A stretch of DNA of 62,697 nt, filler included, from Dugesia japonica (Eukaryota), in the NCBI GenBank assembly GCA_001938525.1. It is 5 parts of 5 records of this genome, joined end to end, with 100 filler letters (N's around TTAATTAATTAA, not from the genome) between each part and the next. Parts side by side here need not be neighbours in the genome. Positions count along the whole stretch, not along the records: positions 42,439 to 62,697 come from MQRL01641136.1; 4 more parts are not named here. One strand, written 5' to 3'. The translations under genes were made by a program, and so were the position numbers. Shown here one piece after another: positions 56,416-59,400 of this stretch (position 1 is its first letter; the number at the start of each line of letters is the position of its first letter). The notes beneath the pieces are model-generated. The model made no database searches. It worked only from the letters and a program-made list of their open reading frames with translations, and had not been told where the DNA came from.

Positions 56416-59400
56416 CTAAATGGCATGATAGATTAAAACAGAGATCCTCATTGTTNNNNNNNNNNNNNNNNNNNNNNNNNNNNNNNNNNNNNNNNNNNNN
56501 NNNNNNNNNNNNNNNNNNNNNNNNNNNNNNNNNNNNNNNNNNNNNNNNNNNNNNNNNNNNNNNNNGATCTCTTTTCTTTGCGGATTAATCTTAGAGTATG
56601 GATGAATCCGGCCGTCATTATCTAAACTAGGCAATTATTATAAACAAAAAAAAATACTTGACTGAGTGCACTGAATGGCAGAGTGATAAACTAAATACAT
56701 AAAGAGAATAAATGGATACAGAAAATCTACATAAATCTATGCTGTAATAATACCACGAGATTTACCCACCATCCCTTTTTCAAAAGGAGACAGAATAATA
56801 ATAATTTAACAGAAATATAAAATCGAACTATATCACCTTATTATTAAAACACACCAAAGATCGATTCAAAGAATATAGCAACAGTAATTAGTTTCGACCA
56901 TGATTGTTCGGGTTCCGTGTTGGTCGTGGGATCTAGATTTTCAGTGTATTCCACACCTGTGAGTTCCCTAACACCCCAGAGCAAGTTTGTAATAAAAGCT
57001 TGCACTGTTGGGGGTAGGGCCAGATGTTGATTACTGAAGAGGGTTACGTGGTTACGAACCAGGTCAGTCCAATTTTGGTGATTCTGTCTTTCCCCAAAAG
57101 TCTGAATACGTGCCACCATGGCCTTAACGGGTGGTAAATTGGATCGGTCTGACAGGATACCCGCATCTCGATGGTATGGGTTTATATGGCGTTGAAAAAT
57201 CATACNACGCGTCCGTCGATCGTAAACTCGTTCCCATATGACATCCACTAAAATTATAATATAAATAGATGATAATTAAAATGTTCACACAATCTTGGCA
57301 AAGAGAATTAGATTAAAATCATAAAATTTATATTTTAATTCATTTAGATTTATAATGCAACTGCATATTATCCGGTGGGGTCAAGGACTCCATCCTCCTG
57401 ATAACCGAGGAGGAACATCCCCGAGATACATTGTAAATCCGTCTCATCTGTATGTTCCACCAACTCGGGGTATAAAAGATGACCGATCAGTCGCCGACGG
57501 CGCATGCGTTCTCATTATTCTAACACACAACACAACACGGTCCGTAATTCGTCACTCATTCCAGGACTAATATTTAATTTATTACCTAATAAAAATAAAT
57601 TAATTAATTAAATCTTTCGAATAGATTCAAGGCCAGAACAACCGCAACCAAACAAAATATGTTTCATTATAAGGTAACCCATTTAATCGTGTTGCTGATC
57701 TAGCCATCAAGCCCAGTGGTATTTAGCAACAAAATATTCATTAAAATTAGAGTTNTCGATGGCGTTTGATTTCGGGTGTTACGGTTAACCNAATTTAGTT
57801 ACTGCATTCTATCAGGGANCTAATTTGGTAAAAAAAACAATAAAATACCCACTTTGTGCTGAAACGTCGTGTTTAATCTACTTTTACTATTATTAACCGA
57901 TTCATTGGATTTAAAAACTGGATTTATCATTCCCTGTTCTTTAATAATATATACCATCTAGTAGGTGTTAATAACATCGCAGTGGTTGGTATAAGAATTT
58001 AGGTAAATTTTAACTAATAATTGACAGTATTTAATTTACCGCTACATCGGTTGCCTAGTGATTTTACAACATGATCTTGAGCTGGATGCAGATGGATGTT
58101 AATTTACTTACATACACACACAAGGCAGAAAATACAACGAACTGGTACGCAATGTCGATAGATTGCACATAGTTGACCAGTTGAACTGTATGGTTAACTA
58201 CCCGTTTAACATGCATGGCGAACAAAACAGATTTTGTTGTTGATTTGTTAGTGATATTTATGGCTACGAAATCACTTATTATATTTTCTTTTTCCTTAAC
58301 AGAGATCGCACCGCTGCATTGTTTGGCCCACAACAATCCGACTGTGTAAATATCATTAGACATATGCGGCTCAAATTTCACTGTATTTATGTTATGAGAA
58401 TGACATTCGGTTCTATTTATTTGGTGACAGAATTTATTAATCATTAAATAAAATAAATCGTGATTAAATTTCTATTACTATAAATTAACATTTCATTCTT
58501 AATTTATACTAAACAATATTTACAAAAGTTTTACTAATGTGGAATATAGAATTACTGCAACGGTTTTGTAGACAAACAATTGAATTCCTCTAATAGTCAG
58601 CTGATTTTCTTCCTTCGTTTTCTTGGCGGTATTCCTCGATTTATTTCTTCACTACTAGCTGATTATATTCCGTGAGTTAATCGACACACAATTTAATCTT
58701 ACNNNNNNNNNNNNNNNNNNNNNNNNNNNNTGAATTGATTCTAAACAGTGCGGAGTCACTAAGTCCAAATAATTAAAATGTTTTTGGTGGTTTTGTTACT
58801 GAGTTTTGTAGATCCTTATATAGGACTATTTCTGCATCCTCACTTCTTTATTAAGTGTTTATTTTTAATTCAAATCTTCGATTTCTGATTGGGTTTCCTG
58901 TCGACTTTTAGATTATTTCTACAATTTTCTGTGCTTTCATTGGCAGCTATTTTTGGATCATCAGGTGAGTTTTAGTTCTTTGTTTTATTTTTTAATTTCA
59001 GATTGCTATTGGACCAATCTTAAAATCTTCGTGAAGACCCTCTGGATGGTGGTACCATACTCTAGTGTCAAAATTCTAATGACCCAATCTAAATCCTTTT
59101 CAAATTTTCTTAAACCCAGCTCCGGTGACTTCCCAACGAATTTTTTTCTAATTTTAATTTAATTTATTTGCAAATTAATTAACATTTTTTTTCTTGTAAT
59201 TAGTTATTTTGATTAATGATTTTCTTCATTTTATTATTGATTTTGATAATTTCTTCTAATTAATGCGATCGACGTGAATCATCTTCATCCACCCAAATTT
59301 TCTATAACGATCTTCTCTGTTAATGGTACACCCCTTTAAGGGTTTGTACATAGTGTACTGTTTATGATCGTAATTGTTTTCTTTCTCAGAGTGCCAGTTG

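Follow-up and report, generated by a model that had tools for sequence, protein, structure and literature searches.

Our analysis revealed that the reading frame at 56844-57248 of the analysed Dugesia japonica DNA (the window, i.e. the whole stretch of 62,697 nucleotides) belongs to a family of small proteins, called here B, which is real as judged by sequence comparison. What is new here is a shared element end, inside which B and a second small ORF, A, lie in three of their four copies. In the reading that we prefer (probability of about 0.6), B is an accessory small protein, with a core of about 95 aa, of a lineage-restricted Gypsy-ended element, which is most probably an LTR retrotransposon or else derived from one and non-autonomous. 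B would be cargo of a mobile element and not a host gene: an accessory ORF, as yet unnamed, in an LTR-like family that is decaying. The evidence base consists of four gap-truncated copies and one outside homologue; as assembly gaps interrupt all four copies, a complete element is not seen.

Copies of A and B in the window

The following ORFs were found:

10233..10415, minus strand: ORF A of copy 1, open, 60 aa
10028..10066, minus strand: ORF B of copy 1, first 13 codons from the ATG, then assembly gap
17354..17530, plus strand: ORF A of copy 2, in-frame stop near its end
17727..18147, plus strand: ORF B of copy 2, frameshift near 17835-17843 and stop at 17866-17868
41504..41641, plus strand: ORF A of copy 3, decayed at its start
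41767..41985, plus strand: ORF B of copy 3, start frameshifted, C-terminal half unrecognisable
57368..57505, minus strand: ORF A of copy 4, 45 aa from the ATG, basic stretch followed by HxDExDLxC
56844..57248, minus strand: ORF B of copy 4, open, 134 codons plus stop, starting with GTG; conserved core at residues ~5-95

Copy 4 is the only one of the four gap-truncated copies to keep a full-length open B frame, in which one base is an N (57206, codon 15). An earlier note had correctly recognised this frame, but its upper coordinate, given as 57247, was off by one and is 57248. The GTG start stands at a position equivalent to the ATG of copy 1 and of an outside homologue, P0004, and the last ~20 residues are private to copy 4. 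The length of about 134 aa that had been proposed for the family does not hold, since it is particular to copy 4 and P0004 has 94 aa; the family is defined by three conserved blocks within about 95 residues. The N-terminal motif W-E-x3-D-x2-T-x3-IF-x-R-x2-N-x-Y-x-RD-x3-L-x-DRS matches exactly at 57236 and 17739. IVFKRVRNSVNRDAGTLQD at 41782 and MESKWEVCLD at 10066 (minus strand) are present where they had been reported, the latter in a frame that an N-gap cuts after 13 codons. The C-terminal motif claimed by the same note is also present, but its spacing was given as x7 and the correct form is HL-x8-FI-x-N-x-LW-x-VR. Likewise, the frames at 17728 and 17956 are both homologous to B but are not separate: the frames at 17727 and 17869-18144 form a single gene, interrupted by a frameshift and a stop, as shown by the middle block, which matches both P0004 and copy 4 (YYDWTGPNR in copy 2, YHSWVGPRR in P0004 and NHQNWTDLVR in copy 4).

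In a tblastn search, the 57248 protein matched the other B copies with 35.4, 30.8 and 30.0 bits, all three above the best score obtained by chance (23.9 bits in 60 block-shuffled windows). A full phmmer search of the same protein against 1.84 billion representatives gave three matches, among which P0004 (94 aa, E 9e-5) is the sole credible outside homologue of B; it matches copy-4 B at 36% over 86 aa, including all three conserved blocks. P0002 and P0003 were dropped as homologues, these long proteins scoring through 14 and 6 summed short stretches, respectively; P0003 is a tandem-repeat protein. With P0004 alone as query, the B copies were recovered with E 2e-11 (57236), 1e-10 (17736), 6e-5 (41782) and 0.27 (10066). 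Because of this last value, the assignment of B in copy 1 rests on eight identities out of 10 and on its place after A. A weak B-like piece, VFKRKRNPRKQD, with no A before it, was also noticed at 39067-39153 (+); the match is not significant (E 0.64-0.78), and this stretch starts where the 3′ flank of the exonuclease gene ends.

B had been described as always directly following A. This is the case at all four A loci of the window, where the two ORFs are separated by about 120-190 nt on the same strand; these four cases are copies by descent and not independent evidence of a partnership. A and B are linked because both are passengers of one repeated mobile element, which is recognised by its terminal motif and its TATA-bearing end of ~600 bp. 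The A-B copies are about 55-65% identical, occur in both orientations and are mostly broken.

Between copies 2 and 4 of B, codon position 2 holds a share of 0.20 of the differences (p 0.004), with 0.21 for A and 0.30 for control HSPs from the non-coding end. The pS values range from 0.58 to 0.77 and the pN values from 0.29 to 0.41. The HSP blocks were picked by protein similarity, which inflates the coding signal, and the control eases this concern only in part. Such a depletion of codon position 2 points to past selection on B as a protein.

A shared element end and the layout of the element

The terminal 17-mer TGTTGGGGTGAAACACC occurs eight times in the window, versus 0.03 expected. At 13237 (-), 14834 (+) and 59477 (-), it continues into about 600 bp of related DNA, and the element ends of these three copies align over ~500-580 bp with 61-64% identity (E 1e-26 to 7e-41). 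TATATAA is aligned in all three of them, 615-801 nt inside the element and facing A-B.

12585..13237, minus strand: LTR-like element end of copy 1; motif at 13221-13237, TATATAA at ~12617-12623
14834..15672, plus strand: LTR-like element end of copy 2; motif at 14834-14850, TATATAA at ~15634
58790..59477, minus strand: LTR-like element end of copy 4; motif at 59461-59477, TATATAA at ~58816-58822
41038..41054, minus strand: terminal motif belonging to a further member of this element family; it stands head-to-head with copy 3, at the place expected for the end of copy 3 itself

Inward from the element end and on the same strand, A starts at 1972-2822 nt and B at 2229-3171 nt (copies 1, 2 and 4), which places A-B 2.0-3.2 kb inside the shared end in three of the four copies; no end of its own precedes copy 3. 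All eight motif copies carry TGTTGGG, which fits TGTTRNR, a signature described in the available text of PMC3601003 as the 5′ integrase signal of LTRs. The motif was also considered as the LTR of the Gypsy element at 27562-30484; this was ruled out because that Gypsy has its own direct repeats of ~100 bp.

Other sequences associated with the motif were observed. The stretches 39090-41054 (-) and 31742-32057 (+) make up another subfamily of the element with this terminal motif (61% over 246 bp), and the 39090-41054 element carries different short ORFs, at 39733-39897 and 39302-39637. At 47783-48300 (-), a unit of about 505 bp shows a motif variant at its start and ..TTACA at its end, followed by a second motif copy; it has the look of a short LTR and was possibly duplicated by assembly. 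About 870 nt inside the motif at 47782, an open ORF of 125 aa, coiled-coil-like (46542-46916, -), has CAACAG directly before its ATG; its Pfam matches are sub-threshold only.

Further ORFs follow B in copies 2 and 3:

18464..18724, plus strand: ORF C of copy 2, basic, coiled-coil look; homologous piece at 42259-42333
18879..19246, plus strand: ORF D of copy 2, helical look, cut by an N-gap; without a homologue in the rest of the window
42212..42338, plus strand: ORF C remnant of copy 3, runs into an N-gap

The two C sequences share 40% over 25 aa (pairwise E 9e-5). The order is thus element end, a leader of 1.3-2.2 kb, A, B and C (then D), with a GC content of 0.39-0.53 in the ORFs (0.35 in the tail of copy-4 B) versus 0.18-0.29 in the spacers. 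All of copies 1-4 reach an N-gap no more than 2 kb after B. A relationship between C or D and two ORFs at 48724-49026 and 43772-43975 found no support (best E 0.45).

The stretches 43772-44324 (+) and 48303-49026 (-), which contain these last two ORFs, are related blocks made of a helical ORF and then ~300 bp at 65% identity. Both end with CCCAA(C/A)A and an AT-rich flank and may correspond to the far end of these elements, with a possible GGGCRT..AYGCCC stem seen in these two sequences only; no link was found between these blocks and A-B. Low-complexity, Asn/Ile-rich stretches with frames open on both strands were also noticed at 16639-17218, 41047-41305 and 51504-51914; they immediately precede A in copies 2 and 3 and also occur within the element at 50677.

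Acceptor-like sites before A and B

The B frame of copy 4 starts at an acceptor-like site:

57248..57262, minus strand: acceptor-like site of copy 4, T-rich ..TTTTAG, its G also serving as the first base of the GTG start; same phase (1) as copy 2

A T-rich YAG is found within -1 to 14 nt of all six A and B starts of copies 1, 2 and 4, with a background of 16% of 1477 AT-context RTGs, these starts being homologous and hence non-independent, and the range of distances having been chosen after seeing the data. Copy 3, whose starts are decayed, was for this reason left out of the count. The B frames of copies 2 and 4 begin with TTTAG|TG and have no ATG at the start position; in copy 1, a phase-1 TAG lies 8 nt upstream of the start of B. 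The missing ATG in copies 2 and 4 would suit a spliced leader supplying the first base. No splice donor was identified for A or B. The host genes of the window have GT-AG introns of 45-57 nt.

Searches for relatives of B

The description of B as an unknown protein was borne out in the libraries searched, where it received no Pfam, PHROG, PDB or fold assignment. Pfam matches of B were sub-threshold only (Ion_trans, Reovirus_L2_N and SMIM43). Among 150 ORFs (144 of the 152 element-region ORFs plus six others, the remaining eight being scanned separately), Pfam gave four matches at E<=0.005, of which only a gag zinc knuckle was above its cut-off. PHROGs matched none of five proteins, PDB sequences gave a single match (E 0.37), phage records gave none and none of 601 pattern matches in GTDB genomes was confirmed; Rfam and tRNA searches gave 0 matches. 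A word-index homologue search with the 57248 protein scored neither of its two candidates, and a profile search among proteins of near lengths found nothing but P0004 among 133 candidates. None of 3581 candidates was a longer homologue, which is weak evidence. Two AlphaFold models of B, both of low confidence (pLDDT 57 and 54), have an N-terminal beta-hairpin and then helices. BFVD and PDB gave no Foldseek match at E<=0.001, and the best VIA-align score (Z 5.2) was against a generic helical pair; this absence of match is no proof of a new fold.

The earlier note had considered that B might turn out to be a fragment of a standard transposable element protein. This was looked for in Pfam, in the PDB and among longer proteins, and none was found; as far as these searches reach, B appears to be a fragment of no standard transposon protein. 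The WW domain consensus includes a second Trp and a third strand (N-x-x-T-x-x-T-x-W-x-x-P). The first 18 residues of B resemble this domain, a candidate that was rejected: P0004 and copies 2-4 lack the second Trp, and there is no Pfam WW match. No description of the B family was found in the literature searched, subscription journals and Repbase being outside its coverage, so that a repeat library may already have an entry for it, and the TGTTGGGGTGAAACACC motif string is in none of the papers searched.

Comparison with known systems

Accessory small ORFs of LTR elements escape homology searches. They have recently turned out to do real work, according to the available text of the sources: sORF2 acts in cell-to-cell transfer (bioRxiv 10.1101/2025.03.14.642691) and CERV in RNA export (PMC10309623). 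The closest published layout is that of sORF1/sORF2 in the MDG1 group, compared here by description. In these Gypsy elements of Drosophila (412, Mdg1, Stalker), the two sORFs (~110 and ~70 aa) are located between the LTR and gag, are under purifying selection and belong to unspliced transcripts; sORF1 (~110 aa) is predicted to be a helix-turn-helix protein and is nuclear (bioRxiv 10.1101/2025.03.14.642691), a fold for which the AlphaFold models of B are too weak a basis of comparison. As in the MDG1 elements so described, the short ORFs found here (~60 and ~95-140 aa) are in sense orientation downstream of a putative LTR promoter, show a pattern of purifying selection and are too short and divergent for homology searches. 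Unlike them, there are here at least four ORFs, with acceptor-like sites, and gag/pol was not seen downstream, whereas the MDG1 RNA is unspliced. According to the same source, sORF2 and FAST-like fusogens have a single central transmembrane helix, an ectodomain of 10-50 aa and an N-terminal MGxxxS/T (bioRxiv 10.1101/2025.03.14.642691). By contrast, B has no transmembrane segment, and MGxxxS/T is absent in P0004 and in the tested B and A copies. B holds no conserved hydrophobic segment: the best 19-residue hydropathy is 0.24 in P0004, and the 1.42 seen in copy 4 is confined to the very end of its C-terminus, which is not conserved. B is no membrane fusogen.

CERV, encoded by Cer1 of C. elegans, is a spliced protein of 517 aa and five exons that shares peptides with Gag and is needed for RNA export (available text of PMC10309623). 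Like CERV so described, B would be a novel, lineage-restricted LTR-element protein made from spliced RNA, with acceptor-like sites before the initiator codon; unlike it, B is about a fifth of 517 aa, the two being compared by length only. The host of Burro is an AT-rich invertebrate. Burro and Ogre are giant Gypsy elements (PMC6431247); they resemble the element proposed here in their long ends and in having accessory ORFs, which lie either before the polyprotein or inside it. In the available text of that source, the extra domains of Burro are recognisable (MATH, BIR, BCL2, ankyrin), unlike those here, where Pfam detected none of them among the ORFs.

Ginger1 makes CCGG/CCGT target duplications, and Ginger2 has TIRs of 50-180 bp, a 4-bp TSD, AT-rich targets and an H2C2-DDE transposase (available text of PMC2836005). 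The element described here shares a TGTNR terminus with both, and most of its flanks are AT-rich, like the targets of Ginger2. It differs in that none of the eight motif flanks is CCGG, CCGT or ACGG, and in that an inverted repeat of 40-270 bp and an integrase-like transposase were not seen in its gap-cut copies; the Ginger description, in the available text (PMC2836005), includes no row of small ORFs. Overall, B would work like an LTR accessory ORF, a likeness that assigns it to no named family. A conserved, non-membrane set of four ORFs located behind an element end common to several copies would add a new member to the class of LTR accessory ORFs, and the 17-bp TGTTGGGGTGAAACACC tag makes this element family easy to collect from a genome.

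Nature of the element and alternative explanations

We only infer the class of the element, because PBS, PPT, TSD, second LTR and same-strand gag/pol were not found. For the A-B copies of the window, no second LTR, shared PBS or TSD was detected, and no shared CA-TGG site was seen in the five ends scanned. None of the eight motif copies is preceded by a purine tract, which is expected only before 3′ LTRs. Downstream of B in the same orientation, no gag/pol was found among the 150 ORFs, all copies reaching N-gaps within 2 kb. It is unlikely that B is the passenger of a Ginger2-like or Polinton-like DNA transposon, the ends of which would be of the integrase type. The 17-mer would then be the outer part of its terminal inverted repeat, and its transposase would have been deleted or be missing from the assembly. 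TGTNR is also the rule for Ginger ends, and Ginger2 has a preference for AT-rich targets, according to the available text of PMC2836005; most motif flanks are AT-rich, copy 4 is flanked by two motifs pointing at each other, at 50677 (+) and 59477 (-), and CCCAACA at 44310-44316, a candidate other end, closes a related small-ORF block. However, the 50677/59477 pair has neither a direct-repeat TSD (ATAA vs TTAT) nor any similarity beyond ~20 bp, none of the 150 ORFs has a transposase domain, the motif variant found at 48300 after a small-ORF block is direct and not inverted, and the shared ends resemble a promoter of ~600 bp. An LTR is favoured over a Ginger-type end because this end is long and bears a TATA. 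B could also be an internal exon of a longer spliced element protein (A-B-C-D or leader-B), as suggested by TTTAG|TG in the same phase and the lack of a start ATG in copies 2 and 4 and by the phase-1 TAG of copy 1. We regard this as quite improbable: Met stands at the same position in copy 1 and P0004, all four A copies stop at a similar place, the spacers (120-190 nt) exceed the 45-57-nt host introns, and the search of 3581 longer proteins was negative (weak evidence). Moreover, GTTGATTTAGAT, in the A tails of copies 1 and 2, would be a phase-0 donor, whereas the acceptor is in phase 1. A fusion of A and B is less likely because A stops alike in all copies and this sole shared donor-like string is out of phase.

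A gag remnant with CCHC knuckles is located at 55704-56234 (+), between two gaps and on the strand opposite to copy 4. If this gag and copy 4 formed one element, A-B-C-D would be additional ORFs running antisense to a Gypsy, at its 3′ end, and the motif would be the 3′ end of a very long LTR. The plus strand of 59461-59477 ends with CCCAACA, which equals the 3′ integrase signal YNYAACA, and only a gap of 110 N separates gag (+) from B-A (-). This explanation is nonetheless very doubtful, as pol is absent between gag and B unless hidden in the gap, and in copy 2, where the 4.4 kb between the motif and D are free of gaps, nothing corresponds to the other end of an LTR; such an LTR would therefore exceed 4.4 kb and contain the ORFs. 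Finally, a single unnamed record is the only homologue of B and the pattern is one of purifying selection, as would also be expected of a host-specific orphan gene pair spread by segmental duplication or capture. That A-B is such a pair is hardly credible, since the copies are ~55-65% identical, mostly broken, in both orientations and devoid of short introns, and since three of them have a mobile-element terminus in common.

If B is an accessory ORF of an LTR-ended element, as we prefer, transcription would start at the TATA of the LTR-like end, and A and B would be separate proteins made from RNAs spliced to the YAG before each of them, an upstream exon completing the first B codon in copies 2 and 4. 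B would be soluble, with an N-terminal beta-hairpin bearing a basic/aromatic IFKRxxNxY patch and then helices, and would regulate the RNA of its own element, by export, stability or shielding from silencing. This role as a soluble regulator is a tentative guess from the basic/aromatic patch and from analogy with CERV. It is similarly speculative that the element represents an undescribed LTR-ended family whose promoter drives four to six unrelated small genes with their own 3′ acceptors, as in the accessory region of a complex retrovirus, but which spreads in an invertebrate with few or no gag/pol genes of its own, B being a new soluble regulator that binds RNA or a host protein.

Other features of the window

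The window is AT-rich, its GC content being 0.21-0.36 per 2 kb, and 2516 of its positions are N. Two host genes were recognised: a PX-domain sorting nexin with short introns (21509-22130), which we take to be SNX3, and an EXD2-like exonuclease (about 33850-36712; E 1e-9 to PDB 6k17). Several remnants of other mobile elements are present: a hAT transposase at 560-2040 (-) and a pogo-type DDE_1 at 32106-32840 (+), both from Pfam; a decayed Gypsy with LTRs of ~100 bp at 27562-30484 (+), in which Pfam recognises an RT fragment (RVT_1), remnants like a protease and an integrase being seen by eye; an RT-like remnant, also by eye, at 61106-61623 (-); and presumably a Helitron-like remnant at 19350-20300 (-), recognised by eye from a motif. 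Near-identical duplicates across N-gaps at 36478-39083, 40247-40632, 47513-47935 and 53030-54781 are probably haplotype or assembly artefacts, and several of the 100-base gaps contain the linker TTAATTAATTAA.
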